A stretch of DNA of 32,000 bases, taken from positions 1,680,001-1,712,000 of the forward strand of contig NZ_CP034549.1 of assembly GCF_003966335.1 (NCBI RefSeq), read 5' to 3'. Source of the stretch: Nonlabens ponticola (GTDB taxonomy: Bacteria; Bacteroidota; Bacteroidia; Flavobacteriales; Flavobacteriaceae). How positions within the stretch are numbered: position 1 is the first letter of the stretch; every line of letters begins with the position of its first letter. This document shows positions 4,444 to 30,970 of this stretch, in pieces. The notes beneath the pieces were generated by a model, which worked only from the letters and a program-made list of their open reading frames with translations, made no database searches and was not told the origin of the DNA. The translations under genes and the position numbers were made by a program.

Positions 4444-5337
4444 TTATAGATGGGCTTGTATTTTCGTTTTTAGTTTCTTTATGACCTGTTGATTAAAGGG
4501 ATTTTCTTCAATCGTTTTCAATAGCTTAGAATAGTTTTTACGGTCTAATACATAACTGTGTTTATGATACTTTTTCAAGCCGTTTACGACTTCTTTATCA
4601 TTCATTGCAGCCATTAGTTTTATTTCCTTAGGCTGCAAAGCAGCGTAGGGAATAATAGGTTTCTTTTTAAGCGTTGTATAGATTTCTAATAGGTTCATTA
4701 ACAAATTTGTGTAATTCTCCTTGTTCACTAAATCACGTACTGTATAGATGGGTATGGCGTCCTTCTTTCGAGCATAATAATATTTTGCTTTAGCTTCTAC
4801 CTCAAATCTGAAGTACGGCGCGTTTAATTGCTTTCTGTCATTATTCTTTACCTCATAGGTTTTGTCATAGCCCTTAATATTATAATTTGTTGCTTTATAG
4901 TGTGCTCCATATATTTTTGTGCCGTTGCGCATTACCTGAGGAAACTTACCCTTATAATCTGCCCAGCTTTCAAAAATTGGTTGCGCTACTTCTTGTATTA
5001 CGATGCCGCAGGCAACGTATTTTACAATAGCATCGTAGATGCTGAAAGGGAAGTGGTTATCTAATATTTCTATGGCGTGCTGCGCTTTCGCGAAAGCGAA
5101 CTCCTCATAGTTATTATCCATATAAAACTTATGTAATGAGTTTTTAATAATCAACTTATCGTCTTTGAGTTGCAACCAAAGATTCTTAATAACTGATTTG
5201 TAATACACGATATAACCACGATTGCTGTAATGTGGTGACCACTGTAATCCACACCATTCAAAAGGCTCTGTAGATCTTTGCACAGCCTTATGAGGCAGTT
5301 GTTGTAACTGCTTTTCTATGTGGATGGTGTCGTACAA
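4444..5337 (-). CDS. Hypothetical protein, possibly a rolling-circle replication initiator (Rep_trans / gene II-X like)
   Basis: 297 aa. The motifs NSLHKFYMDNNYEEF and IKGYDKTYEV...YFRFEVEAK recall the xSLxKxxxGxN and YDK...R-x-E patterns of Rep_trans/gpII-like initiators, from memory only. It starts 4 nt after the upstream HTH gene's stop. It contains one copy of the 14-bp palindrome. Confidence 0.4.
   Translation of the reverse strand: MYDTIHIEKQLQQLPHKAVQRSTEPFEWCGLQWSPHYSNRGYIVYYKSVIKNLWLQLKDDKLIIKNSLHKFYMDNNYEEFAFAKAQHAIEILDNHFPFSIYDAIVKYVACGIVIQEVAQPIFESWADYKGKFPQVMRNGTKIYGAHYKATNYNIKGYDKTYEVKNNDRKQLNAPYFRFEVEAKAKYYYARKKDAIPIYTVRDLVNKENYTNLLMNLLEIYTTLKKKPIIPYAALQPKEIKLMAAMNDKEVVNGLKKYHKHSYVLDRKNYSKLLKTIEENPFNQQVIKKLKTKIQAHL
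5083..5098. repeat. Copy of the GCTTTCGCGAAAGC palindrome (16-bp perfect palindrome CGCTTTCGCGAAAGCG) inside the Rep-like island gene
   Basis: Read directly. Encodes EEFAFAKAQH on the minus strand. Confidence 0.95.
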
Positions 5338-5341
5338 CTCA

Positions 5342-5635
5342 CTAACTATTTCTAATGAGGTACTCTGTAGCTTGTGCGTCTATCTCGTCCTTTGTGATCT
5401 GGCGGTTGCGCTGTAGCCACTGGTCTAATTCTGTACGGTTGAAATACAACTTCTTGCCCTGTGGGCAGAAATGTGGTATTTGCTTTTGACTGGTTAATTT
5501 GTACAGGTGTGATGCGCTTATATCTAAATAGGCGGCAGCCTCATTTAGATTTAATACGTCTTTTTTGAGCAGGTTTTGCTCTTGCAACATCGTTTCGATG
5601 TTTGCGAGTTTTTGAAGAATGATTTCTTGTTCCAT
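5342..5635 (-). CDS. Excisionase-family helix-turn-helix (HTH_17) DNA-binding protein
   Basis: 97 aa. LNLNEAAAYLDISASHLYKLTSQKQIPHFCPQGKKLYFNRTELDQWL is a classic HTH_17/AlpA-type motif. Confidence 0.75.
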   Translation of the reverse strand: MEQEIILQKLANIETMLQEQNLLKKDVLNLNEAAAYLDISASHLYKLTSQKQIPHFCPQGKKLYFNRTELDQWLQRNRQITKDEIDAQATEYLIRNS

Positions 5636-5690
5636 CGTAATGTATTTTTATGATTACGTGAACAAAGAAATTGAGATGCTTGAGCGTAGC

Positions 5691-5736
5691 AAAAACATCA
5701 ATGACCGTGTACTGACATAAGTCAGTATAGTCATTG
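5691..5736 (-). terminator. Compound hairpin immediately downstream of the 444-aa gene
   Basis: CAATGAC (5699-5705) pairs with GTCATTG (5730-5736). The inner stem is TACTGAC (5710-5716) with GTCAGTA (5721-5727). A T-run follows on the minus strand (revcomp of aaaaacatc at 5691-5699). Confidence 0.45.
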
Positions 5737-5740
5737 TTTT

Positions 5741-7075
5741 TTATTGCATTTCCTTAAATATTTTGTCTATGATTTCTTTTTCTTTTGGGTTACCAGTGTT
5801 TGCAGTACTCAAATTTGAACTGTTTAATACGGTAGTATTACTACTTAAAAATAACTTTGAATCTGACACATCAACAGATCTAAAACGAGTAAAGTAATCT
5901 TGCATTTTACTAATTATATATCTGAACTGGATATTTTCGCAATTCAAATGAACTTTTATATTTAAAATTGTAATGTCTTTAGCAAGTAATAGTTTATGAA
6001 ATTGCTCGATACTGGTATGATCTGTTTTTAATAGATTTATCCTTAATTGTAAAGATTTAAGTACTGATAATAATTTTATATCATCACCTTTAAAACCAAA
6101 GGTTTTAATAGGTTCTTTGGGCTTGCGAGCTGCTTTAGCAGGTGCAGTCTTTAATTGTGGTGCAATCTCGTTGAAATAGGCTTTCTCGTTTTCCAACCAT
6201 TTTTTGATGGTTTTTATGTATCGCTTTTCTCCTTTGGTATATTCTACGGTTAAGTCTTTTTGCTTAATTCTGTGTGACTCATTGATAAAATCAATTTTGG
6301 TCTTCTCTGCATCTGTAATGTGTCTATCTTTTACTAATTGTACCGTATCAACCGCTGATAGTAAATTATTAGTAAGATTATTTAAGTTGAGTACCAATTC
6401 TGTAGGTGTAACGATTTTAGCCTTAGTTAAGCCTAAGTATCTGTTGGTTCTCGTAGCATTCTTAATAATAGGAAACTGATTAGCGAAGTGCTTCTTAAGC
6501 TGTTCGTAAAATGGCAATTCAAATGGGAATGCTTTCAACCATTTGCTATATATACCAAAGAGTAAATTGAGATTTGTTTTCTCTTTAGCAGGTTCAGCAT
6601 TCTGTAATTCCTTAAAGTAGTTTAATAATGCTTTGCGCTTGTGGTTGGGAATATCAACATCCTTGTTTTTTAAAAACAGCTCTACTAATTCTATGTAGAT
6701 ATGTGAACCAATAGCAGGTGTTCCCATACTCCAAGCACAAAATTCAAAATACTCTGTAATGTCCTCATACCAATCGTCATTATTAATGACCTCTAAAACT
6801 TTAAAATCAGTATACTGTACCGCACTTAAAATCCATATTGGAATATTACCATAGATAGCTTCTTTATTAAAATTAAACTTTTTAAAAAATTCTCTATGAT
6901 TATCGCAGCAATTAGGAAAGCGATCTAAATAATCAGTTAATAATTTATAATTGTGTTTGTGGTTATCGCAACAATTGGGAAAATCTTCTGGTAATTCATA
7001 ACCGTCAGGTTTAGGAATTTCAAAAGGATATTGAATAAAGTCCTTAGATTCTATTTCTATAAAAGGTTTTTCCAT
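5741..7075 (-). CDS. Hypothetical protein with no recognisable family. It has a duplicated FPNCCDNH motif near the N-terminus.
   Basis: 444-aa ORF starting 4 nt after the integrase stop. FPNCCDNH is encoded twice (nt 6959-6982 and 6896-6919), 21 codons apart. Confidence 0.6.
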   Translation of the reverse strand: MEKPFIEIESKDFIQYPFEIPKPDGYELPEDFPNCCDNHKHNYKLLTDYLDRFPNCCDNHREFFKKFNFNKEAIYGNIPIWILSAVQYTDFKVLEVINNDDWYEDITEYFEFCAWSMGTPAIGSHIYIELVELFLKNKDVDIPNHKRKALLNYFKELQNAEPAKEKTNLNLLFGIYSKWLKAFPFELPFYEQLKKHFANQFPIIKNATRTNRYLGLTKAKIVTPTELVLNLNNLTNNLLSAVDTVQLVKDRHITDAEKTKIDFINESHRIKQKDLTVEYTKGEKRYIKTIKKWLENEKAYFNEIAPQLKTAPAKAARKPKEPIKTFGFKGDDIKLLSVLKSLQLRINLLKTDHTSIEQFHKLLLAKDITILNIKVHLNCENIQFRYIISKMQDYFTRFRSVDVSDSKLFLSSNTTVLNSSNLSTANTGNPKEKEIIDKIFKEMQ

Positions 7076-7079
7076 AACT

Positions 7080-8186
7080 CTATAAGTCTAATTGAATACG
7101 GTTAGCGGCTTCCATTTTCTTTTGGTCTATAACTTTTGCATAAATCTGCGTTGTCTTCAATTCTTTATGACCTAAAAGCTTTGATACCGTGTAAATATCT
7201 GTACCTAACGTTAATTGTAAGGTCGCATAGGTATGGCGAGCACAGTGAAACGTTATCGTTTTACTGATACCAGCTTTCATCATCCATTGTTGTAATTTGA
7301 GATTTGTCCAGGCACTATAATGTAACCCTTTAAACACGGTTTCATCATTTTCACCTTCTTCACCTAATAAATTTCTTGATTGCTCTGATATGTTTAGTGT
7401 TTCAGAACCTTTAGTTTTCTTCTGTCTGAATCTAATGTAGTGACCATTTTCTTTAGAATATTGCATTTCTGACCATACTAATTTTTCAATATCGCTCCAT
7501 CTTAAACCAGTAAGACAACTAAAAATGAATGCTTTTTTAAGTTCTGGAAGTTCACATTCTACCTTGACGATTGCTTGCAATTCGTCATAGGTTAGAAACT
7601 CTCTTTGCGGATCACCTTGTTTGAATCCTTTTACTTGTTCTGCTGGATTAAGTCTTAAAATACCATCCTTTACGGCTTGTTTAAGCGCAGCATTAAACTT
7701 GCCGAAGTATGAATACTTTGTATTCAAGGAAAGTTCTTTATTTGCTCTTCCTATTGCTTTTTTGTCTAAGTACTCTTTAAACTCTTCAACAAACTTTTTA
7801 TTGATTTGCTTAAAAGAAATACCCATCGGTTGGAAAGCTTTCATATGCTTAATAAGACTTAGCCAATTACCATAATTTCCCTTACTACTGCTACGTTTTT
7901 CTGCAAGTACTTCTAAATAACTTATAAAGCTACCTTTCATTTTTTCCTTATCCTGAAAGTCATATAAACCGCTCTGAATGGCAACGTGTTTTTTTGCTCT
8001 AATACTTTCTGCAAGTTCTAATGATGCTTTATTTTCATCTCGCTGAGCTTTTGTGAGCTTTCCTTGTTCTGGTTCAGGATGTAAATACAGTTTCAAATAC
8101 TCGTAACTGCGATTTCCATTTTCATAGTAATCGAGGTAAAGGCTTATCTTATTTCCTTTCTTGCGTTGTCTTAAGGTAACTTTCAT
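7080..8186 (-). CDS. int: Tyrosine site-specific recombinase / integrase (Bacteroidota type with an N-terminal arm-binding domain)
   Basis: 368 aa. Catalytic signature: LTGLRWSDI (Arg), HCARHTYAT (His-x-x-Arg) and LLGHKELKTTQIYAKV (His ... Tyr nucleophile). Confidence 0.9.
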   Translation of the reverse strand: MKVTLRQRKKGNKISLYLDYYENGNRSYEYLKLYLHPEPEQGKLTKAQRDENKASLELAESIRAKKHVAIQSGLYDFQDKEKMKGSFISYLEVLAEKRSSSKGNYGNWLSLIKHMKAFQPMGISFKQINKKFVEEFKEYLDKKAIGRANKELSLNTKYSYFGKFNAALKQAVKDGILRLNPAEQVKGFKQGDPQREFLTYDELQAIVKVECELPELKKAFIFSCLTGLRWSDIEKLVWSEMQYSKENGHYIRFRQKKTKGSETLNISEQSRNLLGEEGENDETVFKGLHYSAWTNLKLQQWMMKAGISKTITFHCARHTYATLQLTLGTDIYTVSKLLGHKELKTTQIYAKVIDQKKMEAANRIQLDL

Positions 8187-8197
8187 CTGGTACGGCT

Positions 8198-8557
8198 TTA
8201 GTTAAATAAGGATTCTATTTGGTATCGGGCAACAATATGTTTTCTGCCAAACGGGACAGCTTTAAGCTGGCCTCGCTTTATCATTCTTTGAATGGTCCAT
8301 CTACTTACTCCAATGAGTTGTGAAGCTTCCGTAATGCTTAAAAAGTCTTTTTGATTTATTGCGGTTGTGCTTGAAGGAATAGCAACCTCTGGTTGCATTT
8401 CTTCTTTTAGAGTTGCTTGAACTTTTTCAGCACGCTTGCGTGCCTTGTAAGCGTACTTAGCGCATTTGCATCCACAGTACTTGGTTACTGTAGTTCGGGC
8501 AACAAAAGCGTTACCACAATACTGGCATTTTTTAGGAATATGTAAGTTGCTGCTCAT
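8198..8557 (-). CDS. Zn-ribbon plus HTH_17 excisionase-like DNA-binding protein. The start is moved to the internal Met37 of the track ORF.
   Basis: CQYCGNAF...YCGCKC is a Cys cluster, followed by LSITEASQLIGVSRWTIQRMIKRGQLKAVPFGRKHIV (HTH_17). The 36 codons upstream (8558-8665) coincide with a phased non-coding-looking repeat array and have odd composition. The stop lies 11 nt before the integrase start. Confidence 0.6.
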   Translation of the reverse strand: MSSNLHIPKKCQYCGNAFVARTTVTKYCGCKCAKYAYKARKRAEKVQATLKEEMQPEVAIPSSTTAINQKDFLSITEASQLIGVSRWTIQRMIKRGQLKAVPFGRKHIVARYQIESLFN

Positions 8558-8560
8558 AAA

Positions 8561-8710
8561 TGGTGCGTTATGTAGCGAAATGGTGCAACGTGGGGCAATA
8601 TGGTGCATCATTTCTCCCTTGATTGTTGCCATTGGATTTGGGCAACAAATCACAATAGTGGGCAACAGATAGGAAACAAATTTATCTTATAAACAACAAA
8701 AGGGCAACAA
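8561..8710. repeat. Iteron-like array of short direct repeats, TGG(T/G)GCA / GGGCAACA, with 20-bp phasing
   Basis: TGGTGC occurs at 8561, 8581 and 8601. TGGGGCAAT is at 8591. GGGCAACA occurs at 8640, 8660 and 8702. An inverted GGCAACAATC is at 8621-8630. Two further GGGCAACA copies lie inside the adjacent CDS at 8227 and 8497. Confidence 0.6.
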
Positions 8711-8775: not shown

Positions 8776-10212
8776 TTACTTCCCGATACAAAACTGCGAG
8801 AAAATATTACTCAGTAATTCATCATTAGTAATCTCGCCGGTAATCATTCCTATATGCTCCGCAGTAGCTTTAATGTCAATGGCAAGGAATTCACTTGAGA
8901 TTTCATTGGCAATACCTTGCTGGACTTCCATGAGCGACGCGTACGCTTTTTGTAGTGCGTCGTAGTGTCTTGCATTGCTCACGATACTATCATCACCACT
9001 TAAGGCGCCACTTTGAAAGCTGGCGACAAGTGCGTCTTTTAATTCCTCAACACCAGTTCCTGATTTTGCACTTAGCGAAATGACAATTGTCTCTGGAGAT
9101 CGCTTTTTTAGTTGTTTGGTAATCTCTGCATGCTCAAGGCCTGTGATTTCGTCTAGCTTATTCAAGACAACTACAACAGGTTTATCAGGAAATTTCTCTT
9201 TCATGATCTGGATGCGCATTAAACAATGCACAATCCGCGGATTGGTATTTAGTTGCGTTGCGTCAAGCAGGTAAAGCACTAGTCTTGATTGTTCTGCTTT
9301 TGCATAGCTGCGCTGGATTCCCATCGATTCAATAGTATCTGTGGTCTCACGAATTCCTGCGGTATCGATAAATCTAAAGCGTATGCCGTCAATATTAATC
9401 TCGTCCTCGATACTATCGCGCGTGGTTCCAGCAATGTCGCTTACGATGGCCTTTTCCTCATTTAGTAGGGCATTGAGTAAGGTGGATTTACCCACATTAG
9501 GCTCGCCCACAATGGCAATAGGAATTCCTGATTTGAGCACATTTCCCAGTGCAAAAGAATCTATAAGCTTACGCAGTGTTTGTTGGCTTTCAGCTAGTAA
9601 TCTTTTTAAGTCATCACGATTGGCAAACTCTACATCTTCCTCGCTAAAATCTAGTTCCAGCTCAATCATACTGGAAAAATTGAGTAGCTGTGCGCGCAAT
9701 TCCTGCAACTCGCTGGAAAAGCCGCCACGCATTTGTTGCAGGGCAATCTGGTGCGCGGTCTCACTTTCACTGGCGATGAGGTCTGCAACGGCTTCGGCTT
9801 GTGAGAGATCCATCTTGGCATTTAAGAATGCCTGCAGCGTGAATTCACCAGCTTTTGCTGCGCGAGAACCATTTTGCAGGCACAGTGCAATTATTTCTTG
9901 TTGTATGTAAATGGAACCGTGACATGAAATTTCCACGACGTGTTCGCCCGTATAGGACCGTGGCGCATCAAACCTTGTCAGTAGTACCTGATCTACGATT
10001 CTGTTGCCATCGTACACGCGTCCCAAAGTCACTGTATTGGGATGTAGTCTTTCAAATAGCTTTAATGATGGTCGTGAGTTAGCTTTCGCGAAAGCGGGAA
10101 CAAAAACAGCCGCTGCAATCTCATGGGCATCTGGTCCAGACAAACGTATCACTGCAATGGCGCCTGAACCAGCTGGTGTGGCGAGTGCGACTATGGTATC
10201 ATTTTTAAACAT
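8776..10212 (-). CDS. mnmE: tRNA modification GTPase MnmE (TrmE)
   Basis: N-terminal MFKNDTIVALATPAGSGAIAVIRLSG. G-domain motifs GEPNVGKSTLLN, DTAG and NKLD. C-terminal CIGK motif. The start is set at Met18 of the track ORF (ATG at 10212). Confidence 0.9.
   Translation of the reverse strand: MFKNDTIVALATPAGSGAIAVIRLSGPDAHEIAAAVFVPAFAKANSRPSLKLFERLHPNTVTLGRVYDGNRIVDQVLLTRFDAPRSYTGEHVVEISCHGSIYIQQEIIALCLQNGSRAAKAGEFTLQAFLNAKMDLSQAEAVADLIASESETAHQIALQQMRGGFSSELQELRAQLLNFSSMIELELDFSEEDVEFANRDDLKRLLAESQQTLRKLIDSFALGNVLKSGIPIAIVGEPNVGKSTLLNALLNEEKAIVSDIAGTTRDSIEDEINIDGIRFRFIDTAGIRETTDTIESMGIQRSYAKAEQSRLVLYLLDATQLNTNPRIVHCLMRIQIMKEKFPDKPVVVVLNKLDEITGLEHAEITKQLKKRSPETIVISLSAKSGTGVEELKDALVASFQSGALSGDDSIVSNARHYDALQKAYASLMEVQQGIANEISSEFLAIDIKATAEHIGMITGEITNDELLSNIFSQFCIGK
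10082..10095. repeat. Copy of the GCTTTCGCGAAAGC palindrome inside mnmE
   Basis: Read directly. Encodes VPAFAKANS on the minus strand. The 22 nt at 10074-10095 are identical to 25052-25073. Confidence 0.95.
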
Positions 10213-10353: not shown

Positions 10354-12825
10354 ATGAAGATTTTGAATCGTGTACTATTACTTTTTATGATTTTTGCTTT
10401 CGCGAAAGCATACTCTCAAGAAAAGCTAAACTACCAACAACCATCAGAAGAAATAATGAAACTCGTGGACTATGATCGCCCGCCATGGACGCTCATCGAC
10501 GATGATACAGAAAATATGGTACTGCTATACAGAGACACCTATAAATCCATCGCATCGCTGTCTGAAGAAGAGATGCGGCTAGGTGGATTGCGTATCAATC
10601 CAAAAACCAATATTGGTAGTCGCACGACTTTCTATGATAAAGTTGCCCTGCAAAAAGTAGGTTCCAAAACCTCAAAACCCGTAGCTGGATTACCAGAAAA
10701 TGCCAAGCTCGCGTACATCAATTGGTCTCCTGATCAATCCATGATTGCTATGACTAATACCAATGAGACAGGAACGGCGGTCTGGATTCTTGATATAGAG
10801 AAAGGTAGTGCTCGACAGGCAACTGGATATAGTGTCAATGCAAACATGGGTAATCCCATCGACTGGTTTGAAGATGGTAGTGCGCTGTTGGTCAAGATGC
10901 TGGCAGATGATCGCAAACCACTCATTGATACCGACGTCGCCATACCAACTGGACCAACCATATCTACAAGCGACGGTTCCAAAGCGCAAAATAGAACCTA
11001 TCAAGATTTATTGAAGAACCCAGCAGATGAGCACAACTTTGAACAATTGGCATTGAGTAAATTAGTCAAGGTGTCCATGGATGGAAAAGCGACTGATTTC
11101 TTGCCAGCAGCCATGTATAGAGGTGTGTCATTCTCTCCAGATGGATCTCACGTGATGGTTTCAAAGCTTCAAAAGCCATTTTCATACATCGTCACCTATG
11201 GTAGGTTCCCACAACAATCGACTGTCTATGATAATAAGGGAACGCTTGTACAGGTAGTGAATAATGTACCACTTATTGAAGAGATGCCACAAGGTTTCAT
11301 GGCAGAGCGTACCGGCAAACGTGACGTGAGCTGGCGTGCTGACAAGCCACACACACTTATGTATGCAGAGGCACTTGACAACGGTGATCCAGCGATGGAT
11401 GTTCCCTATCGCGATGCGGTCTATAGCTGGGAAGCACCATTTACTGATGCAACTAGCACCCTTATGTTGAAGACCAAAGATCGATTCTCTGGAATACAAT
11501 TTGGCAACAAGAATACCGCAGTTGCCTATGATTACTGGTGGAATACGAGAAATACAAGAACCTACGTTTTTGATCCGTCCAATAATAAGGTGGAACCTAA
11601 AGTAATTTCAGACCGCAGCTATCAAGATGTTTATTCTGATCCAGGTGATTTTGTAACGACTAAAAATGAGTACGGCAACAATGTCCTAAAGCTAGATGGG
11701 ACGACTGCTTATTTGATGGGTGATGGATACTCTGATGATGGACAGTTCCCATTTGTAAGTCAAATGAATCTCAAAACTGGAAATTCAAAAATGATGTACA
11801 AGTCGGCTTATACCGATAAGAAAGAAACACTTGTTGAAGCGCTGGACATGGATAAAGGAACGGTCCTAGTAAGAATTGAAGGACCTACGGAGTATCCTAA
11901 TTACTATATACGCAATATCAAGAAAAAGAATAGTGTTGACCAGATCAGCTATTTTGAGAACCCTTTCTCAGGATTGCAAGATGTACATAAAGAATTAATT
12001 ACCTACAAACGTGATGATGGTGTGGACTTGAGTGCAACGCTTTATTTGCCGCCTAATTATGATAAGTCGAGTAAGGAAAAATTGCCTATGCTGGTTTGGG
12101 CTTATCCGCGTGAATATAAGGATGCCAGCAGCGCAGGTCAAAACACTCAAAATCCTAATGAATTCATCTATCCCAGCTACGGTAGCTTTGTTTATTGGGT
12201 CATGAAAGGATATGCGGTAGTAGATGATGCTTCATTCCCTATCATAGGTGAAGGTGAAGAAGAGCCTAATGATACTTTCATACCACAATTGGTAGCCAAT
12301 GGTAAAGCAGCTATTGATGCCGTTGATGAAATGGGTTATGTAGATAGAAATCGAGTAGGTGTAGGCGGTCATAGTTATGGTGCGTTTATGACGGCAAACT
12401 TGCTTGCGCATTCTGATTTATTTGCCGCTGGTATCGCACGATCTGGTGCTTATAATAGAACATTAACGCCGTTTGGTTTCCAGAGTGAGGAGCGCAACTA
12501 TTGGGAAGCTCCAGATATCTACAATACGATGTCACCATTTATGAATGCAGAAAAAGTAGATGAACCTATTTTGTTAATTCATGGTCAGGCAGACAATAAC
12601 AGTGGTACTTATCCTTTACAAAGTGAGCGTTATTTCAACGCTTTGAAAGGGCTAGGCGCAACAGCTAGATTAGTAATGTTACCTAAAGAAAGTCATGGTT
12701 ATGCGGCCAAAGAATCTATCCTGCACGTACTTTGGGAACAAGATCAGTGGTTGGAGAAATATGTAAAGAACAAATCATCGCAGGCTGAAATTGATTCAGA
12801 TGATAAAATCAAAGGAAAGCCATAG
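10354..12825 (+). CDS. Secreted S9-family serine peptidase (prolyl oligopeptidase / dipeptidyl-peptidase-like, with a beta-propeller N-domain)
   Basis: Signal peptide MKILNRVLLLFMIFAFAKA/YSQ from the ATG at 10354. Catalytic triad context: GGHSYGAF (Ser), HGQADNN (Asp), ESHGY (His). Confidence 0.85.
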   Translation: MKILNRVLLLFMIFAFAKAYSQEKLNYQQPSEEIMKLVDYDRPPWTLIDDDTENMVLLYRDTYKSIASLSEEEMRLGGLRINPKTNIGSRTTFYDKVALQKVGSKTSKPVAGLPENAKLAYINWSPDQSMIAMTNTNETGTAVWILDIEKGSARQATGYSVNANMGNPIDWFEDGSALLVKMLADDRKPLIDTDVAIPTGPTISTSDGSKAQNRTYQDLLKNPADEHNFEQLALSKLVKVSMDGKATDFLPAAMYRGVSFSPDGSHVMVSKLQKPFSYIVTYGRFPQQSTVYDNKGTLVQVVNNVPLIEEMPQGFMAERTGKRDVSWRADKPHTLMYAEALDNGDPAMDVPYRDAVYSWEAPFTDATSTLMLKTKDRFSGIQFGNKNTAVAYDYWWNTRNTRTYVFDPSNNKVEPKVISDRSYQDVYSDPGDFVTTKNEYGNNVLKLDGTTAYLMGDGYSDDGQFPFVSQMNLKTGNSKMMYKSAYTDKKETLVEALDMDKGTVLVRIEGPTEYPNYYIRNIKKKNSVDQISYFENPFSGLQDVHKELITYKRDDGVDLSATLYLPPNYDKSSKEKLPMLVWAYPREYKDASSAGQNTQNPNEFIYPSYGSFVYWVMKGYAVVDDASFPIIGEGEEEPNDTFIPQLVANGKAAIDAVDEMGYVDRNRVGVGGHSYGAFMTANLLAHSDLFAAGIARSGAYNRTLTPFGFQSEERNYWEAPDIYNTMSPFMNAEKVDEPILLIHGQADNNSGTYPLQSERYFNALKGLGATARLVMLPKESHGYAAKESILHVLWEQDQWLEKYVKNKSSQAEIDSDDKIKGKP
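10395..10410. repeat. Copy of the palindrome (TGCTTTCGCGAAAGCA) in the signal peptide of the S9 peptidase
   Basis: Read directly. Encodes MIFAFAKA/YSQ. Confidence 0.95.
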
Positions 12826-15632: not shown

Positions 15633-15654
15633 ATTCCGCTTTCGCGAAAGCGGA
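15633..15654. repeat. Copy of the palindrome extended to 22 bp (TTCCGCTTTCGCGAAAGCGGAA), intergenic
   Basis: Read directly. Lies about 35 nt upstream of the -7 box at 15690. Confidence 0.95.
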
Positions 15655-16503: not shown

Positions 16504-18042
16504 TTATCCTAGCCAGCCATCACGGTCTAGACTTCTATATTGTATGGCCTCTGCGATATGTGTTCCTGTCACTGCGTCAGATTCTTCTAGATCTGCGATG
16601 GTTCTTGCAACTTTAAGTATTCGATCATAAGCTCTAGCGCTTAAATTTAAGCGTTCCATGGCATTTTTAAGCATGTCTTTACTAGCATCATCAAGTTTAC
16701 AGTGCTTACGTATTTCTTTGGTGCCCATTTGTGCATTGTAATGGGTCTTGTCGCTTTCTTTAAATCGTGCCGTTTGAATGTCTCTTGCAGCAGTCACGCG
16801 TTTTCGAATGACTGTCGATTTTTCTGCTGGTCGTTCCTCAGTGAGTTTTTCAAACGGTACTGGTGTTACCTCGATGTGAATGTCGATTCTATCCAATAGC
16901 GGCCCAGAAATTTTGCTCAGGTACCGCTGCATTTCGGCAGGGCTGCTTTGTACAGGTGCGTTCGGATCATTAAAATAGCCGCCTGGACTCGGGTTCATAC
17001 TGGCAACTAACATAAAACTTGATGGATAGGTGATCGTGAACTTAGCTCGTGAGATGGTTACTTCACGATCTTCTAGCGGTTGTCGCATGACTTCAAGCAC
17101 CGTACGTTTAAATTCAGGAAGTTCATCTAGAAACAAAACACCATTGTGACTTAACGATATCTCGCCAGGTTGCGGATAGGCGCCGCCGCCGACAAGTGCG
17201 ACGTCAGAAATTGTGTGGTGCGGACTTCTAAAGGGACGCTGTGCCATCAATCCAGACTTTTCCAGCGTTCTGCCAGCGACGCTATGGATTTTGGTGGTTT
17301 CTAGCGCTTCTTGCAAGGTCATTGGCGGTAGGATAGACGGCAAGCGCTTTGCCAGCATAGTTTTTCCTGCGCCTGGTGGCCCGATCAAGATGATGTTGTG
17401 GCCGCCTGCGGCGGCAATCTCCATACATCGTTTGATGGACTCTTGACCTTTCACATCAGCAAAATCAAATTCTGGATGTTCCAGTGCTTGAAAAAATTCA
17501 TCTCTAGTATCTACAATGGTTTCTTCTAGTGGCGCATCCTTATCAAAGAAGTTAATGACTTCAGAAATATTTTCGACACCGTACACAGCCAGATCATTGA
17601 CAATCGCTGCCTCGCGGGCATTTTGTTTAGGTAGAATAAATCCCTTAAATCCTTCTTCTCTCGCTTTTATGGCGATGGGCAATGCTCCTTTTATAGGTTG
17701 TAGTGTGCCATCCAGCGAGACCTCGCCCATGATGATGTACTTATCTAGATCACCAGCTTGTATCAATCCAGCCGAAACCATAATACCGATAGCAATAGGT
17801 AAGTCATAAGCGCTGCCTTCCTTGCGCAAATCTGCTGGTGATAGGTTTATTATGAGCTTCTTGCCAGGCATTTTATAGCCCACGTTTGACAATGCGGCAG
17901 CAATACGATAAGAACTCTCACTAATAGCTTTATCGGGTAATCCAACAAGGTGATAACCTATACCAGTCGCAGCATTAACCTCGACGGTGATTGTTTGCGC
18001 CTCAACGCCAAAAACAGCACTACCATAAACTTTAGTCAGCAT
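16504..18042 (-). CDS. comM: YifB/ComM family Mg-chelatase-like AAA+ ATPase
   Basis: 512 aa. N-terminal Lon-protease-like domain, Walker [18 protein letters not shown] (Walker B) and the C-terminal ChlI/Mg-chelatase subunit domain. Confidence 0.9.
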
Positions 18043-18227: not shown

Positions 18228-18476
18228 ATGTTCCTATTTGCCATCTTCCAAGGGATCGTATTTTATTTGTGTGAATATGTGTTAGACCTACATGGTTTGG
18301 CATTAATTGTAGTTGCAGGGATTACGGGATTTCTACAATTTGTCTTGTGCATTATCATGACCGTGGTGGCAAATTACCGCGACATGTGGGCACAAATGAG
18401 ATTAGGTTGGTGTATATCCGGCTTTTTACTCCTCGCCGTTGGCTTTTCCTACTATAATTTCTTACTGGAATATTAA
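18228..18476 (+). CDS. Small hydrophobic membrane protein (three predicted TM segments), hypothetical
   Basis: 82-aa ORF dominated by hydrophobic stretches. There is no competing ORF on the other strand. Confidence 0.45.
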   Translation: MFLFAIFQGIVFYLCEYVLDLHGLALIVVAGITGFLQFVLCIIMTVVANYRDMWAQMRLGWCISGFLLLAVGFSYYNFLLEY

Positions 18477-18516: not shown

Positions 18517-18532
18517 TGCTTTCGCGAAAGCA
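18517..18532. repeat. Copy of the palindrome (TGCTTTCGCGAAAGCA), intergenic
   Basis: Read directly. Lies between the small membrane ORF and the nitroreductase gene, 22 nt before the ATG at 18555. Confidence 0.95.
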
Positions 18533-21137: not shown

Positions 21138-21169
21138 CAAAAAATCCTGCTCAATGAGCAGGATTTTTT
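21138..21169. terminator. Bidirectional rho-independent terminator between convergent genes
   Basis: AAAAAATCCTGCTCA-A-TGAGCAGGATTTTTT is a near-perfect palindrome with an A-run and a T-run. Confidence 0.8.
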
Positions 21170-22164: not shown

Positions 22165-22197
22165 AAAAAAAATCCTGCTCAATCAGCAGGATTTTTT
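22165..22197 (-). terminator. Rho-independent terminator of the lipoprotein gene; near-copy of the 21138-21169 element
   Basis: AAAAAAAATCCTGCTCAATCAGCAGGATTTTTT. It differs from the 21138 element by one base in the loop/stem junction. Confidence 0.7.
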
Positions 22198-23135: not shown

Positions 23136-25112
23136 TTACTCGATGATCAATTTCAATGTGCGAACCATCTCACCTTGATTCAATCTCACCAAGTAGATAC
23201 CACTTGCAAGATTGGTGTTTATTTTAGCGTCACGATCAATTTGCGTGTAATAAGTCATTCTTCCCATAGCGTCATAAATGACTACCTCCATCGGCTGTTC
23301 TACATTAGAAATGAAAAATGAGCCTGGTGATGGATTAGGGTATATCGTGAGTTTTGTTAATTGATTACTCTCATTAGAAAGAGTAAAAGTCTCACCAGCT
23401 TGCTCACCCCAAATGAAATCTGCCAGCTCTGGATTGTCAATAAATGGATTGCGGTTGCGCTGCCATTCATAAATGACGTTGTTCCTGTTCATTTCAAAAT
23501 CATCTGGTGGATCCTGCTCATTCCATTCCAATAATACATCAAGATCACCCATGGCGCCCACGGTGCTGTTATCTGGATTGCCTCTTACCAGATCCACATT
23601 GTTATAGCGCAATGCCATATAAAACATCGCGCGAGCAACATCACCATGCCAGCTTCCTTGACTTCTTTCAGGGCCGTTGTATTCTGGGTAATCTTGATTA
23701 CCTCGGGAAGAATTTTCTGGACCATCTGTTGCTCTTAAGTGATGTGCATCGCTATTACCGTGACGCGTGCTATCTACACTGGTCTCGATCCACTCGTCAA
23801 TACCATCAGCTGTCTCATCAAAGTCTTCTAGACTAAAGAAATTACCACGAGATCTGCTATAAATGTGTTCTCGATTCCAGGTTCCTTGATTATTGCTGCC
23901 GGTTTGAAAATCAATATCACGTCGATCCTGCTCTGTGTACATCAACCACACCTTATTTGAATTTTCTGGGCTGGCGTCTGCATCCTTAAGGATGGTAGTT
24001 ACATCATCATAAGAGTGTATGCGTACTACACCAGTTTCTGCAATGAGATTAGTGATAGCCTGAGCGAGTTCATCACCAGACTTGCCTTCTAGATTGTCAT
24101 AATATCCATCTGGTTGTGTGCTTGACACTACACCATAGGTAGGATTGAGTGGTGTACCATAAGCGGCTACTACAAAGTCATTATCGATGACAGCTGTTTC
24201 CTCATTGTCTTTTAATCGCTTGTAACCTATAGGTAAAGAATTACCTAAGTTTACTCTCAAGAATTCATCGCCTTCATCTAGATCGTCGTCGATTAAGGAA
24301 TACGATAGAGTTTTGGTAGTTTCTCCTTCTTGAAAACTTACGCTGTTCGCGCCTGTATAATCTTGCGTATTAAATCCTCTATTGCTTAAAGAAAAACTAA
24401 TGGTAAAGTCCTGATCAGCCGGCTTTGTAAGATTAAAGATGATGTCAAAATCCTGTCCTTCATCAAGGCGACCTTCAGGATCGAGAGTAAAATCAATACC
24501 TATGTATGATGGCTCGTCGGTATCATTGAAAGAGTGCGGCGTCGGCGCCTTCGTCTCATAAGTGCCGTCTGCCTTGCGCTGTATGGACTCTGTCGTCTGG
24601 CGGCCATTTTCATCCTCGTCATATTGTACCTGTTCTCCTAATAGTGTTAATAATGCTTGACTGTCAGTATCATCAGTATCATAAACAAGTGCGCTGATTA
24701 AATTCTCTTGAGTGGCAAACGTTCTATCTGGAAAATCTGCCGTACTACCTCTATAAACAGCTACGGCATCAGCACCCAGTTGAATGTTAGATTCTGCTAG
24801 TCTGCGGTCTGGTGCTGGAACCACTTTTGAACTTCCTAGAACGACCAGGCCATTAAAATCTGTCACAAGGCCATCTAGATCTACCGCATAATAACTGCGA
24901 CCGTTTCCTGTGGTTGAGCTATTTGGATTTCCATTGAAGAATACCAGTACATAGTCGTCTAATTCCGTGAAGGGTTGTGGCGTCAACAACTCGACAAATT
25001 GCTTATCGTTGGTACTAGGTGTATCAGCATCTAGCTCGTTAATGACAACTTGTGAGTTAGCTTTCGCGAAAGCTAAAACACCAACAATTAATAACACATA
25101 AAAATTTCTCAT
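23136..25112 (-). CDS. Secreted endonuclease I family nuclease with an N-terminal lamin-tail-like domain and a T9SS C-terminal sorting domain
   Basis: Signal peptide MRNFYVLLIVGVLAFAKA/NSQ from the ATG at 25112. VVINELDAD...QFVELL is LTD-like. The endonuclease I core is NREHIYSRSRG, DAHHLRATDGPENSSRGN, GDVARAMFYMALRY and NRNPFIDNPE. The T9SS tail is LTIYPNPSPGSFF...GIYLVRLNQGEMVRTLKLIIE. Confidence 0.8.
   Translation of the reverse strand: MRNFYVLLIVGVLAFAKANSQVVINELDADTPSTNDKQFVELLTPQPFTELDDYVLVFFNGNPNSSTTGNGRSYYAVDLDGLVTDFNGLVVLGSSKVVPAPDRRLAESNIQLGADAVAVYRGSTADFPDRTFATQENLISALVYDTDDTDSQALLTLLGEQVQYDEDENGRQTTESIQRKADGTYETKAPTPHSFNDTDEPSYIGIDFTLDPEGRLDEGQDFDIIFNLTKPADQDFTISFSLSNRGFNTQDYTGANSVSFQEGETTKTLSYSLIDDDLDEGDEFLRVNLGNSLPIGYKRLKDNEETAVIDNDFVVAAYGTPLNPTYGVVSSTQPDGYYDNLEGKSGDELAQAITNLIAETGVVRIHSYDDVTTILKDADASPENSNKVWLMYTEQDRRDIDFQTGSNNQGTWNREHIYSRSRGNFFSLEDFDETADGIDEWIETSVDSTRHGNSDAHHLRATDGPENSSRGNQDYPEYNGPERSQGSWHGDVARAMFYMALRYNNVDLVRGNPDNSTVGAMGDLDVLLEWNEQDPPDDFEMNRNNVIYEWQRNRNPFIDNPELADFIWGEQAGETFTLSNESNQLTKLTIYPNPSPGSFFISNVEQPMEVVIYDAMGRMTYYTQIDRDAKINTNLASGIYLVRLNQGEMVRTLKLIIE
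25057..25076. repeat. Copy of the palindrome extended to 20 bp (TTAGCTTTCGCGAAAGCTAA) in the signal peptide of the secreted nuclease
   Basis: Read directly. Encodes VLAFAKA/NSQ on the minus strand. Confidence 0.95.
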
Positions 25113-25233: not shown

Positions 25234-25236
25234 AGT

Positions 25237-27931: not shown

Positions 27932-27953
27932 GGAAATGGGTTTTTATTTTTTG

Positions 27954-27961: not shown

Positions 27962-28044
27962 AATGTTCTACAACGTTTTCGTGATTGTTGTAGAAGATTT
28001 TTAGTTGATAAATTACTATTTAGAGAATTACCATGTTGGTTGTG

Positions 28045-28068
28045 ATTTTGCTTTCGCGAAAGCAAAAT
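28045..28068. repeat. Copy of the palindrome extended to 24 bp (ATTTTGCTTTCGCGAAAGCAAAAT), intergenic
   Basis: Read directly. Lies between the htrA terminator and the gap promoter. Confidence 0.95.
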
Positions 28069-28088
28069 AGCCAGCCACATACCGACAT

Positions 28089-28120
28089 AAAAAAAGCCTG
28101 ATCGATGGATCAGGCTTCTT
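28089..28120 (-). terminator. Rho-independent terminator of htrA
   Basis: AGCCTGATC (28095-28103), loop GATG, GATCAGGCT (28108-28116). A T-run follows on the minus strand (revcomp of aaaaaaa at 28089-28095). Confidence 0.75.
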
Positions 28121-28138
28121 AACAATATTTCATTTCTA

Positions 28139-29551: not shown

Positions 29552-29651
29552 AAATGTTTTAATTTAATTCTCTGTTCAATTTATATAGGAAAAGCAAAAA
29601 TTCCTGTAGGATTTTGACATCATTAACAGGTATAGGTTTAATCTCACGATG

Positions 29652-29659
29652 TACCTTTG
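29652..29659 (+). promoter_or_regulatory. Bacteroidota -7 box (TACCTTTG), 4 nt before the dapF ATG
   Basis: TACCTTTG followed by TGTC then ATG (29664). Confidence 0.4.
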
Positions 29660-29663
29660 TGTC

Positions 29664-30449
29664 ATGTCCAGCATCGTTTTTTTCAAATACCAGGGAACAG
29701 GAAATGACTTTATTCTTGTTGATGATCGTCAAGGTCAATTCTCCAAAAAAGATACCAAACTCATTGCTCGTTTATGCGACCGTAAATTTGGCATAGGTGC
29801 CGATGGACTCATTTGTTTACAGGATCATGACCAGCATGATTTTACCATGCTATACTATAACGCAGATGGTCGCGAGAGTAGTATGTGCGGCAATGGTGGT
29901 AGATGTATCGTGAGCTTTGCGCAGCATTTAGGACTAGTTGAGGATACTGCAATTTTTGAAGCAGTTGATGGAATACACCACGCTCGTTTGTTTGACAACG
30001 GCCAAGTGAGTTTACAAATGAAGGACGTAGATCATGTTAATAAGGTAGGTAACCATTTATTTACTGATACAGGATCACCGCATCACGTGCAGCTTACCGA
30101 TAATGTAGAACATACCGACGTTGTAGCCATGGGTCGAGCACTGCGTCATGATCTATATGGTGAGGCTGGTGCCAATATCAATTTTGTACAGCCGGTAACG
30201 GCGGCGACCTTTAAAGTGCGCACCTATGAGCGTGGAGTAGAGGACGAGACCTTGAGTTGTGGCACTGGTGTTACAGCCGTGGCACTTGCCATGCATGCCA
30301 GCCAGCAAACCACAGCGCATGAAGTCACCTTGCAAACGCCAGGTGGTGAGCTCAGGGTAGAATTTGACATAAATCCTAGTGGCGGTTATCACAACATCTG
30401 GCTCACAGGAGCAGCCACTCAAGTTTTTACAGGAAGTATTGACGTATGA
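29664..30449 (+). CDS. dapF: Diaminopimelate epimerase
   Basis: MSSIVFFKYQGTGNDFILVDD N-terminus. Both catalytic Cys motifs are present: SMCGNGGRC and LSCGTGVTA. The start is set at Met6 of the track ORF. Confidence 0.9.
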   Translation: MSSIVFFKYQGTGNDFILVDDRQGQFSKKDTKLIARLCDRKFGIGADGLICLQDHDQHDFTMLYYNADGRESSMCGNGGRCIVSFAQHLGLVEDTAIFEAVDGIHHARLFDNGQVSLQMKDVDHVNKVGNHLFTDTGSPHHVQLTDNVEHTDVVAMGRALRHDLYGEAGANINFVQPVTAATFKVRTYERGVEDETLSCGTGVTAVALAMHASQQTTAHEVTLQTPGGELRVEFDINPSGGYHNIWLTGAATQVFTGSIDV

Positions 30450-30970
30450 ACGTATTGACGACAGACATATGCAAACTTAGAGCCGTCGATCCAGAAGATC
30501 TTGACTTTATTTATGCCCTTGAAAACAATCCTGATCTTTGGGATGTAGGTCACACGTTGACACCCTATTCAAAATATACTATACGAGAGTATCTAGAGAA
30601 CGCGCATCGTGATATTTATGAAGTAAAACAATTGCGTCTCGCCATTTGCAGGCAAGATGATTCTATTATAGGAGTGGTAGATTTATATGATTTTGATCCC
30701 TATCACAAGCGCGCTGGTGTAGGTATCGTGATTTCTAGCACCATCGACCGATCTAAAGGTTATGCCACGGCAGCGATGCAGCTCATGATCAATTATGCCT
30801 TCAGGCACTTGAGATTACACCAGTTGTATGCTGGTGTCTCAGAGGATAATCTGGCTAGTAGAAAATTATTTGAAAAGTTACGCTTTCGCGAAAGCGGAAT
30901 AAAAAAAGACTGGATTGCTACCGAAACTGGATTCAAGGACGAGATCCACTATCAATTGATCAATGAATAA
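30446..30970 (+). CDS. GNAT-family N-acetyltransferase (RimJ/RimL-like)
   Basis: 174 aa. Acetyl-CoA-binding region RSKGYATAAMQLMINYAF and LFEKLRFRESG. The ATGA start overlaps the dapF stop. Confidence 0.8.
   Translation: MNVLTTDICKLRAVDPEDLDFIYALENNPDLWDVGHTLTPYSKYTIREYLENAHRDIYEVKQLRLAICRQDDSIIGVVDLYDFDPYHKRAGVGIVISSTIDRSKGYATAAMQLMINYAFRHLRLHQLYAGVSEDNLASRKLFEKLRFRESGIKKDWIATETGFKDEIHYQLINE
30881..30896. repeat. Copy of the palindrome (CGCTTTCGCGAAAGCG) inside the GNAT gene, in a different frame
   Basis: Read directly. Encodes KLRFRESGI. The 19 nt at 30881-30899 are identical to 15636-15654. Confidence 0.95.

Follow-up and report, generated by a model that had tools for sequence, protein, structure and literature searches.

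A long, exact palindrome is hyper-abundant in Nonlabens and Dokdonia and may be a lineage-specific DNA recognition site

The window analyzed here, a 32-kb stretch of DNA from Nonlabens ponticola, begins with a low-GC integrated island and continues through genes that include mnmE, an S9 peptidase gene, comM, a nitroreductase gene, htrA, and a GNAT acetyltransferase gene. Scattered within and between its genes is a 14-bp palindrome, GCTTTCGCGAAAGC, for which an exact-match count returned exactly eight copies (Table 1). The initial annotation had reported eight copies against a chance expectation of about 1e-4, and our recount and dinucleotide shuffles, which gave an expectation of 0.00 copies, bear this out. 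It was also right that five copies lie in genes and three are intergenic, and that the palindromes span 14 to 24 bp. Its start coordinates hold for all copies but one, which begins at 15634 rather than 15633. Of the strings that define sub-families of flanks, GTGAGTTAGCTTTCGCGAAAGC was placed correctly at both sites, TTTTGCTTTCGCGAAAGCA was correct at 28046 and one base off at the other two sites (given as 10391 and 18513), and CGCTTTCGCGAAAGCGGAA was correct at 30881 and misplaced at 15636. No further copies with one or two mismatches and no other k-mers with similar behavior were found in the window. Copy 1 is the sole copy inside the island.

Table 1. Motif copies and related features in the window
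Feature	Position	Core start	Form	Location	Reading
Low-GC integrated island	1-8700				
Copy 1, CGCTTTCGCGAAAGCG	5083..5098	5084	16-bp perfect palindrome	In unknown 297-aa gene (4444-5337, minus strand), codon 81	A-F-A-K-A
Copy 2	10082..10095	10082	14-bp core	Inside mnmE (8776-10212, minus strand), codons 40-44	A-F-A-K-A
Copy 3	10395..10410	10396	16-bp palindrome	Signal-peptide end, S9 peptidase (ATG at 10354, plus strand)	...MIFAFAKA/YSQ
Copy 4, TTCCGCTTTCGCGAAAGCGGAA	15634..15655	15638	22-bp perfect palindrome	Intergenic, divergent promoter region, 50 nt upstream of DUF4268 gene	
Copy 5	18517..18532	18518	16-bp palindrome	Intergenic, 23 nt upstream of nitroreductase ATG	
Copy 6	25057..25076	25060	20-bp palindrome	Signal-peptide end, T9SS-sorted endonuclease I protein (ATG at 25112, minus strand)	...GVLAFAKA/NSQ
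Copy 7, ATTTTGCTTTCGCGAAAGCAAAAT	28045..28068	28050	24-bp perfect palindrome	Intergenic, htrA stop codon 75 nt away, GAPDH-like gene start 118 nt away	
Copy 8	30881..30896	30882	16-bp palindrome	In GNAT acetyltransferase gene (30446-30970, plus strand), codon 146	R-F-R-E-S-G (frame differs)
Decayed relic, CGATTTAAAGAAAGCG	16752..16767			In comM, minus strand	R-F-K-E-S
Sub-family string TTTTGCTTTCGCGAAAGCA	10392, 18514, 28046				
Sub-family string CGCTTTCGCGAAAGCGGAA	15637, 30881				
Sub-family string GTGAGTTAGCTTTCGCGAAAGC	10074, 25052				

Several of these sites can be followed in relatives. Copy 2 falls in a Nonlabens-specific surface loop of MnmE, and its exact DNA is kept in 5 Nonlabens genomes. 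Copy 3 is conserved in three relatives (L121, L122, and L123). Three relatives lack the motif at the site of copy 4, and N. marinus carries a copy at an equal distance from the nitroreductase ATG as copy 5 despite diverged flanks. The relic in comM differs from the clade consensus of the motif, CGCTTTCGCGAAAGCG, by four substitutions and no indel; the same site holds exact CGCTTTCGCGAAAGCG, read as R-F-R-E-S, in four Nonlabens-lineage genomes and in Dokdonia.

The abundance of the motif is not accounted for by base composition. In 96 kb, an order-3 Markov model built from masked sequence, a comparison that the initial annotation had proposed, predicted ~1e-4 copies, and 22 were observed. The excess over chance is ~1e5-fold. 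The weight previously placed on the TCGCGA core was not warranted: outside the motif, this NruI-type hexamer occurs at expectation (11 observed, 10.2 expected), and we rejected it as the relevant unit. An assembly or adapter artifact was likewise rejected, as the same in-frame sites recur in independent isolate genomes and MAGs.

The motif is restricted to a narrow clade. Among 120 sampled tiles containing the 14-mer, ~85 were from Dokdonia, Nonlabens, or unnamed Flavobacteriaceae, with 1 to 3 copies per 8 kb. For an unbiased estimate of density, loci were chosen by MnmE or ComM rather than by the motif, and these contained 33 copies in 161 kb. The frequency in Nonlabens and Dokdonia is ~1 per 3 to 5 kb; there were no copies in 878 kb (79 loci) of other Flavobacteriaceae and none in 21.5 kb of Croceibacter. 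Near-variants in the other Flavobacteriaceae are scattered singletons, and a search of 12-mer palindromes in the same 878 kb revealed no "dialects" of the motif. The ComM and MnmE proteins of Nonlabens and Dokdonia are no more similar to each other than to those of several motif-free genera. Copies are dispersed along the chromosome; in the 3.37-Mb genome of Dokdonia R86516, motif tiles came from positions 0.88, 1.38, 2.15, and 2.82 Mb. Spacing is also more even than random, with a mean pair distance of 3.8 kb compared with 2.67 kb expected (P=0.0007), and this over-dispersion is significant at the 1- to 8-kb scale. Recently integrated islands contain 1 copy in 28.4 kb where 8.8 were expected (P=0.0015), and the lytic Nonlabens phages P12024S and P12024L have none in 35.7 kb each where ~8 to 11 were expected. 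In two prophage regions, the density of the motif is similar to that of the host.

The motif is constrained at the level of DNA. Of 155 copies, 70% lie within ORFs and 30% in non-ORF DNA, itself 10% of the DNA; the intergenic enrichment is 3- to 5-fold. Copies in coding sequence use all three frames (AFAKA, 63; FRES, 25; LSRK, 21). Between genomes, third codon positions are 38 to 55% identical, and only 12 to 14% of the codons for conserved residues are identical in all genomes. The codons of the motif, in contrast, are all identical (P ~2.5e-5 for ComM and ~5e-5 for MnmE), so that synonymous sites are frozen inside the motif and saturated in its neighborhood, and the base directly outside the 14-mer is variable. 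A protein motif, such as an A-F-A-K-A signal-peptidase site, was therefore rejected, because all frames are used, intergenic copies are common, and synonymous sites are frozen. Exact copies far outnumber decayed ones: in 832 kb, we found 180 exact copies, 16 with one mismatch, and 19 with two. None of the 21 possible double variants that would preserve the palindrome was found. An oriented extension, "..A[AC]TCAC," suspected in the window failed over 154 copies.

Alignment with motif-free orthologs, which the initial annotation had recommended as an insertion check, indicates that copies originate by substitution. All five informative comparisons (involving ComM, LamB/YcsF, aldehyde dehydrogenase, and PepX) showed substitutions and no indel, and in the four Dokdonia-Croceibacter comparisons the motif stands in the place of a differing sequence of equal length. 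Only the MnmE copy lies within a lineage-specific loop insertion (~8 residues, Nonlabens-specific), which leaves it ambiguous as to added residues. Intergenic alignments aimed at insertions involved sequences that had diverged too far. Copies at orthologous sites are old and stable. Flanks past +/-4 are all unique, which excludes a fragment of a longer repeat or MITE; in the window, 8 additional flanking bases are common to two of the copies. Closer to the core, positions +/-2 co-vary (0.44 compared with 0.29; p=0.0003), and extension of the palindrome at +/-1 and +/-2 is copy specific. Motif sites are prone to indels, a new palindrome also arises at such sites, and the ComM site displays multi-base codon differences (e.g., AAA/CGC). 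Close motif pairs are separated by housekeeping genes only, with no driver gene or transposase between them.

We have high confidence in this description: the motif is clade restricted, in ~1e5-fold excess, constrained as DNA, derived by substitution, depleted from foreign DNA, evenly spaced, and dependent on sequence rather than on mere folding. The best reading of these properties is that it is a lineage-specific recognition site of a putative DNA-binding protein that is sequence specific and probably dimeric. One of the explanations first offered, a signal for protein binding or of the uptake type that acts genome-wide, gains support from the clade-wide occurrence, maintenance as DNA, substitution origin, absence from foreign DNA, and even spacing of the copies. 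A perfect palindrome of 14 to 16 bp would fit a dimeric DNA-binding protein whatever its function.

Hyper-abundant genomic words are, to our knowledge, rare and confined to a few lineages (Neisseriaceae, Pasteurellaceae, and cyanobacteria). They include the uptake sequences of Neisseria (DUS, GCCGTCTGAA) and the Pasteurellaceae (USS, AAGTGCGGT) and the highly iterated palindrome of cyanobacteria (HIP1, GCGATCGC). We know of no uptake sequence in the Bacteroidota, the phylum to which the hosts of the motif belong. Like the motif, DUS and USS are each a single word, specific to its lineage, that recurs exactly hundreds of times. Many of the copies (35 to 65%) lie in ORFs, where they favor certain frames and residues of low conservation. 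They have accumulated through point substitutions in resident genes and are enriched in intergenic DNA, and genes that were acquired laterally or have no homologs in relatives lack them (PMC2817400). They differ in being asymmetric and 9 to 12 bp long rather than perfect palindromes of 14 to 16 bp, in being three to four times denser (~1 per 1.1 to 1.2 kb compared with ~1 per 3 to 5 kb), and in often forming inverted pairs that act as terminators, a use for which the motif has neither the features nor the placement. HIP1, like the motif, is palindromic and hyper-abundant, keeps its copies across genomes both inside ORFs and in the DNA between them, is distributed nonrandomly along the chromosome (for the motif, at the 1- to 8-kb scale), and has no explanation at the level of peptide, RNA, or regulation (PMC5861425). 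HIP1 reportedly also raises the efficiency of natural transformation (bioRxiv 10.1101/2024.09.10.611283; 10.64898/2026.06.24.733823). The two differ in sequence and phylum. The excess of the motif is ~1e5-fold, compared with 15- to 300-fold for HIP1, because the motif is almost twice as long; its absolute density is below that of HIP1. Further, the motif is restricted to two genera and has no known methyltransferase, whereas HIP1 is spread across a phylum and has cognate orphan methyltransferases.

By analogy with these systems, the motif may function as a self-DNA tag favoring uptake and/or recombination, a role that we consider quite possible, though somewhat short of an even chance. The motif would then be a genomic "word," bound by a sequence-specific protein that is most simply a homodimer. 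Ordinary point substitutions would add copies at any place where the chromosome can bear them, such as in intergenic DNA, at A-x-A signal-peptide ends, in variable loops, and at sites already coding for RF(K/R)ES-like peptides, and a copy, once formed, would be actively held exact. The tag would bias uptake and/or recombination toward DNA of the same lineage, and this bias, as molecular drive or weak selection, would spread and preserve copies in long-resident DNA, leaving newly arrived islands and lytic phages to escape. The recombination or repair hotspot suggested in the initial annotation is folded into this proposal as a possible mode of action, and the co-variation at +/-2 and the indel-prone sites hint that hairpin or cruciform extrusion also has a part. 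Natural competence with a preference for self-DNA is known in some members of the Flavobacteriaceae sensu lato (Riemerella, a distant relative; PMC7965970). The literature searched contained no report of competence, uptake bias, or a receptor in Dokdonia or Nonlabens, and the loci that we read contained no candidate for a dedicated receptor such as a ComP minor pilin. The host-like motif density of the two prophage regions counts against an uptake role, since it is not obviously predicted by pure uptake drive. A more specific version, which we regard as rather unlikely, is that the motif is the first uptake or self-recognition sequence of the Bacteroidota, with a dimeric receptor that would account for the perfect palindrome and a specificity determinant shared horizontally between Nonlabens and Dokdonia.

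Alternatively, the motif might be the site of a chromosome-organizing protein of the nucleoid-associated, SMC-loading, or Noc/SlmA/RacA type, whose dimer would bind hundreds of regularly spaced sites, with weak selection in very large populations maintaining each one. The even spacing and the conservation of orthologous sites fit such a role equally well, as do the dispersal of copies over whole chromosomes, the dependence on sequence rather than fold, and a perfect palindrome of a length typical for dimeric site-specific binders. The parS site (16 bp) and the Noc and RacA sites (14 bp) are comparable in length. With SlmA-binding sites and RacA ram, they are perfect or near-perfect palindromes of 12 to 16 bp scattered on the chromosome and bound by dimers, as the motif presumably is; the spacing of the TTTC/GAAA half-sites of the motif differs from that in parS and the Noc site. 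HIP1 has itself been interpreted as a chromosome organizer (PMC5861425). The known site-specific organizers, however, have tens of sites per genome, with degeneracy and regional bias, while the motif is dispersed at an estimated at least 600 exact sites with almost no weak variants. Nor does this role explain why two genera would need the motif while equally close genera do without it, and a lack of the motif in phages and islands is to be expected whatever the hypothesis. We judge a chromosome-organizing role to be unlikely.

Less probable again is that the motif is a functionless by-product of biased repair or gene conversion, in which a sequence-specific nuclease or mismatch enzyme (VSP-like or methyltransferase linked) would convert near-cognate sites and template switching at quasi-palindromes would perfect the arms. 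A process of this kind was proposed for HIP1 by Elhai (PMC4390886). It would suit the scarcity of one- and two-mismatch forms, which look as if corrected, as well as the copy-specific extension of the palindrome, the indels and new palindromes at motif sites, and the multi-base codon differences in comM. However, template switching alone cannot account for the choice of a single 14-mer at hundreds of unrelated places, and even spacing is not predicted. Fast in-cell conversion would be expected to leave its mark on islands and replicating phage DNA as well, yet these lack the motif. Further, since TCGCGA is at expectation outside the motif, an ordinary 4- to 6-bp methylase/VSP pair is not the cause.

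Action at the RNA level, as a transcribed hairpin serving as terminator, processing site, or mRNA stabilizer, is very improbable. The palindrome would fold in either transcript orientation, its intergenic enrichment is in keeping with such a role, and the extended 22- to 24-nt versions fold at -7.5 to -8.4 kcal/mol (z ~-2.8). The core hairpin, however, is weak (-2 to -4 kcal/mol) and no better than shuffles, and together with the missing compensatory variants this led us to reject a structure-only hairpin. The TT...AA flanks lengthen the stem but supply neither a T-run nor the A-tract/T-tract of a terminator, placement shows no bias toward convergent gene gaps, and the genuine terminators in the window look different. 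Most copies are in ORFs, in all frames, and the window had no Rfam 15 match at the gathering score. The initial annotation had correctly set aside both a terminator and a classical REP/MITE. REP/REPIN elements, which RAYT transposases mobilize, are, like the motif, short, lineage-specific palindromic repeats in hundreds of copies, but they are extragenic, imperfect, 20 to 40 bp long, often paired, and spread by insertion, whereas the motif is mostly intragenic, exact, and substitution derived; no RAYT gene was seen in the loci examined, including between close motif pairs. Rickettsia palindromic elements (RPE) likewise sit inside protein-coding genes without destroying them, but they are insertions of 100 to 150 bp that add a peptide segment, compared with a unit of 14 to 24 bp. 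A miniature mobile element of either kind (the initial annotation had suggested the Rickettsia kind), inserting into genes and intergenic DNA and sometimes in frame, is favored by the MnmE loop, the shared 8-base flanks, the palindromic form, and the high copy number but is already largely refuted by the indel-free and equal-length ortholog comparisons, the unique flanks, the predominance of copies in ORFs, the lack of a transposase, and the age and stability of orthologous copies.

A recognition site for a DNA-binding protein remains our preferred reading. Neither the 14-mer nor its 12-mer sub-strings were found in the literature searched, which also held nothing on palindromes, methylomes, or competence in Dokdonia or Nonlabens, and the motif seems to be previously undescribed. 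Every hyper-abundant word found earlier has led to the machinery of DNA uptake, recombination, or chromosome organization; this one is longer and more exact and occurs in a phylum without a known counterpart. Because its hosts are cultivable marine model bacteria, its function is directly testable. Including the 16- to 22-bp word in constructs might ease genetic manipulation of Dokdonia and Nonlabens strains, as HIP1 does in cyanobacteria. The presence or absence of the motif marks native versus recently acquired DNA and aids in binning metagenomic contigs from the two genera.

The overrepresentation of the palindromic 14-mer GCTTTCGCGAAAGC reported in the initial annotation was borne out by our counts. 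The window contains eight exact copies, and dinucleotide-preserving shuffles gave an expectation of 0.00. The window contains no further copy at one or two mismatches, and no other k-mer is repeated there to a comparable degree. A perfect palindrome of 14 to 24 bp surrounds each core, as had been described, and the division into five genic and three intergenic copies also held; the coordinates first assigned were correct except for occasional errors of one base. The peptide A-F-A-K-A is encoded by four of the genic copies, in an unknown island protein, in MnmE, and at the signal-peptide ends of an S9 peptidase and an endonuclease. The copy in the GNAT gene is in another frame, R-F-R-E-S-G.

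The consensus drawn from 154 copies is wider, CGCTTTCGCGAAAGCG; 79% of half-sites carry G at +1, and a weaker extension, TTnC...GnAA, lies outside it. Beyond this extension the flanks all differ, so no longer repeat contains the motif, and membership of all copies in one longer repeat family can be set aside. In unbiased loci, TTCGCGAA always lies within the full 14-mer, and TCGCGA outside the motif is found at expectation (11 observed, 10.2 expected); the functional unit is therefore the entire 14-16-mer.

Between the copies in mnmE and the endonuclease I gene, which are unrelated genes, the match continues for 8 further bases of the flank, so that 22 nt are identical, GTGAGTTAGCTTTCGCGAAAGC (chance, ~0.002). 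The flanks of the mnmE copy differ in MnmE orthologs of relatives. A short ectopic conversion between the two copies is possible.

Features and exact motif copies in the window and in loci (L numbers) chosen by MnmE or ComM protein
Sequence	Position	Feature
Window	5084, 10082, 10396, 15638, 18518, 25060, 28050, 30882	Core starts of the exact copies (8 in 32 kb)
Window	1-8700	Low-GC (about 30-33%) integrated island downstream of mnmE: HsdS-like gene, N6-methylase/type IIG gene, DUF6617 gene, Bacteroidetes-type integrase
Window	beyond 8700	Core genome, about 40-43% GC: mnmE, S9 peptidase, T9SS-sorted proteins, comM, nitroreductase, DEAD-box helicase, htrA, dapF, GNAT acetyltransferase
Window	10074-10095; 25052-25073	Copies with shared flanks in mnmE; endonuclease I gene
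Window	18228-18476	82-codon ORF
Window	21139-21169; 22167-22197	Near-identical bidirectional intrinsic terminators
Window	21180-22112, minus strand	Gene flanked by these terminators
L121 (Nonlabens sp. Hel1_33_55)		4 copies in 21.4 kb
L121	11609-21437	Integrase island downstream of mnmE
L122 (N. marinus)		4 copies in 21.4 kb
L122	11541-21437	Integrase island downstream of mnmE
L122	17100, 17939, 20640	One-mismatch variants: GCTTTCGCGGAAGC twice, GCTTTCGCTAAAGC once
L123 (uncultured Nonlabens)		6 copies in 21.4 kb
L243 (Nonlabens, metagenome)		3 copies in 21.4 kb
L323 (Dokdonia sp. Asnod2-E02)		5 copies in 21.5 kb
L323	8695-9958	HNH endonuclease gene and 110-residue Mg-chelatase (ComM-like) fragment
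L325 (N. spongiae)		3 copies in 21.5 kb
L325	about 11270-11320	comM site with CCGCCGCGGCGG

A 14-mer scan of one genome per species (596 Gb) returned at least 120 tiles of 8 kb. Among the matches listed, about 85 tiles come from Dokdonia, Nonlabens, or further low-GC Flavobacteriaceae, with 1 to 3 copies each; the remaining listed tiles are single matches in unrelated high-GC phyla, at chance level for 596 Gb. In loci selected by protein and not by motif, the density is ~1 per 3 to 5 kb, equivalent to several hundred copies per 3-Mb genome. The Markov comparison proposed in the initial annotation gave the same picture, with about 1e-4 copies expected under an order-3 model and 22 seen. No copy occurs in 79 loci (878 kb) of other Flavobacteriaceae, where MnmE is 51 to 60% identical, nor is any other 12-mer palindrome hyperabundant in them. 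A 21.5-kb Croceibacter locus contains nothing within two mismatches of the motif.

Several observations place the constraint at the level of DNA. Non-ORF DNA, which makes up roughly 10% of the total, holds 30% of 155 copies, and the ORF copies use all three frames (AFAKA, 63; FRES, 25; LSRK, 21). At the genic sites in ComM and MnmE, third-codon positions are 38 to 55% identical between compared genomes, and only 12% (ComM, four genomes) and 14% (MnmE, five genomes) of conserved-residue codons are identical in all genomes. The motif codons are all identical in all genomes (chance, ~2.5e-5 for ComM and ~5e-5 for MnmE), and in MnmE the base that adjoins the 14-mer is variable. A protein motif is ruled out by the three frames, the intergenic copies, and the constraint at ComM and MnmE. 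An intergenic copy that precedes the nitroreductase start codon by 23 nt is retained in both the window and N. marinus, even though its flanks can no longer be aligned. If decay were unprotected, one-mismatch copies should be about as numerous as exact ones; clade DNA (832 kb) has 180 exact copies against 16 with one mismatch and 19 with two, and exact copies are therefore actively maintained.

Codons 426 to 430 of comM read CGCTTTCGCGAAAGCG (R-F-R-E-S) in four Nonlabens-lineage genomes and Dokdonia, CGATTTAAAGAAAGCG (R-F-K-E-S) in the window, and CGTTTTAAAGACTTAG (R-F-K-D-L) in Croceibacter, with no indel among them. Among 120 ComM proteins, the string RFRES is characteristic of Nonlabens and Dokdonia, and RFKDS, RFKDL, or RFEDS is present in Croceibacter, Seonamhaeicola, Yeosuana, and Gangjinia. 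Three Dokdonia genes likewise align with Croceibacter without an indel: LamB/YcsF (AFAKA; Croceibacter, VLAKQ), aldehyde dehydrogenase (RFRES; KLRKE), and the PepX signal peptide (FAFAKA; ACFQIS). The ortholog alignment suggested earlier thus shows that copies are gained and lost by substitution at peptide-tolerant sites, which include A-x-A signal-peptide ends, variable loops, and preexisting RF(K)ES-like strings. A possible exception is the MnmE copy, the only one located within a loop insertion (some eight residues, specific to the lineage).

By Pfam annotation, the window is a Bacteroidota chromosome segment; its MnmE shares 90 to 92% identity with the proteins from Nonlabens sp. Hel1_33_55 and N. 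marinus, which assigns the window to a Nonlabens species. Directly downstream of mnmE lies an integration hotspot with a different integrase island in each of three Nonlabens genomes. Each island carries an MmeI/Eco57I-like type IIG restriction-modification gene, joined in N. marinus by a Piwi-domain (pAgo) gene. No island is present there in a fourth genome (L123), and the window contains no tRNA gene. The fifth motif copy is closely preceded by an ORF without Pfam annotation, located between the comM and nitroreductase genes, that encodes a very hydrophobic peptide, which may be a small membrane protein. In Dokdonia, the HNH gene and ComM-like fragment immediately upstream of intact comM look like the trace of a mobile-endonuclease insertion.

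The core DNA of four syntenic Nonlabens loci has 21 copies in 67.9 kb, and the three islands have 1 exact copy in 28.4 kb versus 8.8 expected (P = 0.0015). No copy at two or fewer mismatches is present in P12024S or P12024L, two mutually related lytic phages of Nonlabens with 35.7 kb each, versus 8 to 11 expected (P of ~2e-5 to 3e-4). The word therefore marks DNA long resident in the lineage. Prophage regions on two IMG/VR contigs (L176 and L212), with portal, major head, and protease genes, show host-like density, 3 copies in 11 to 12 kb. The N. marinus island lacks an exact copy; its three one-mismatch variants, far above chance, may have come from a donor with the motif and be in decay, or may be sites driven toward the motif.

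For one and the same 14-16-mer to arise at hundreds of unrelated loci, a sequence-specific reader protein would be needed, and the perfect dyad symmetry suggests a homodimer. We infer both the reader protein and the function of the motif. We tentatively favor action as a self-DNA tag in uptake and/or recombination because the set of properties matches that of DNA uptake sequences (DUS) and HIP1, because HIP1 is reported to enhance natural transformation (bioRxiv 10.1101/2024.09.10.611283; 10.64898/2026.06.24.733823), and because Riemerella is naturally competent with a preference for its own DNA (PMC7965970). Like DUS and HIP1 (PMC2817400, PMC5861425), the motif arises by substitution, sits at residues that tolerate it, is enriched between genes and missing from foreign DNA, is exact, and is conserved across genomes; its even spacing within 8-kb tiles also fits them. 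The motif is a DUS/HIP-like genomic word that stands apart by its greater length, its perfect palindromy, a phylum new to such words, and a patchy distribution over two genera. The 8 million full texts searched, which exclude subscription-only papers, contain neither the 14-mer nor its 12-mer substrings, and none of them describes a palindromic repeat, an uptake sequence, a methylome, or natural competence in Nonlabens/Dokdonia.

A binding site that organizes the chromosome is a less probable alternative. Copies lie 3.8 kb apart on average in the 31 tiles that contain exactly two, versus 2.67 kb expected (P = 0.0007), and one pair is <1 kb apart versus 7.3 expected; such even spacing would fit this alternative equally well. 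A functionless bias of repair or conversion seems improbable. The 14- and 16-mers form weak hairpins in single-stranded DNA (-2.1 and -4.3 kcal/mol, respectively) that are not more stable than those of shuffled sequences, and 0 of 21 possible palindrome-preserving double variants occur; it is the sequence, and not merely a hairpin, that is recognized. Positions ±2, which lack a consensus, are complementary in 44% of copies versus 29% expected (P = 0.0003). Motif sites are also indel prone: four Nonlabens MnmE lineages (P0007, P0012, P0025, and P0044) have 7- to 8-residue indels exactly at A-F-A-K-A, and in N. spongiae comM another palindrome, of 12 bp (CCGCCGCGGCGG), takes the place of the motif together with 15 additional nt. 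This complementarity and the indels are hints of intrastrand pairing.

Roles at the RNA level are very unlikely. Rfam gave no matches in the window, and a terminator is ruled out, in agreement with the initial annotation: the flanks have no T-run and instead lengthen the stem, the intergenic copies are not concentrated in convergent gaps (0.57 per kb, versus 0.77 in tandem and 1.0 in divergent gaps), and genuine bidirectional terminators of this genome are quite unlike the motif. Two such terminators in the window have the form AAAAAATCCTGCTCAAT(G/C)AGCAGGATTTTTT, and their 13-mer arm occurs 4 times versus 0.08 by chance. Least credible of all is a mobile mini-element; the in-frame palindromic element proposed earlier is contradicted by motif-free orthologs of ComM, LamB/YcsF, aldehyde dehydrogenase, and PepX that align without an indel, the MnmE loop insertion apart.

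ComM identity between Nonlabens and Dokdonia (0.828) equals that between Nonlabens and Croceibacter (0.828) and is exceeded by those of Dokdonia with Croceibacter (0.855) and Seonamhaeicola (0.857). Among MnmE matches, Aureisphaera, Marixanthomonas, and Christiangramia rank next after Nonlabens itself, ahead of Dokdonia. These single-gene similarity ranks, which are not a phylogeny, lend no support to a sister relationship of Nonlabens and Dokdonia. The patchy two-genus pattern may reflect loss of the motif in several genera or horizontal spread of its reader protein.
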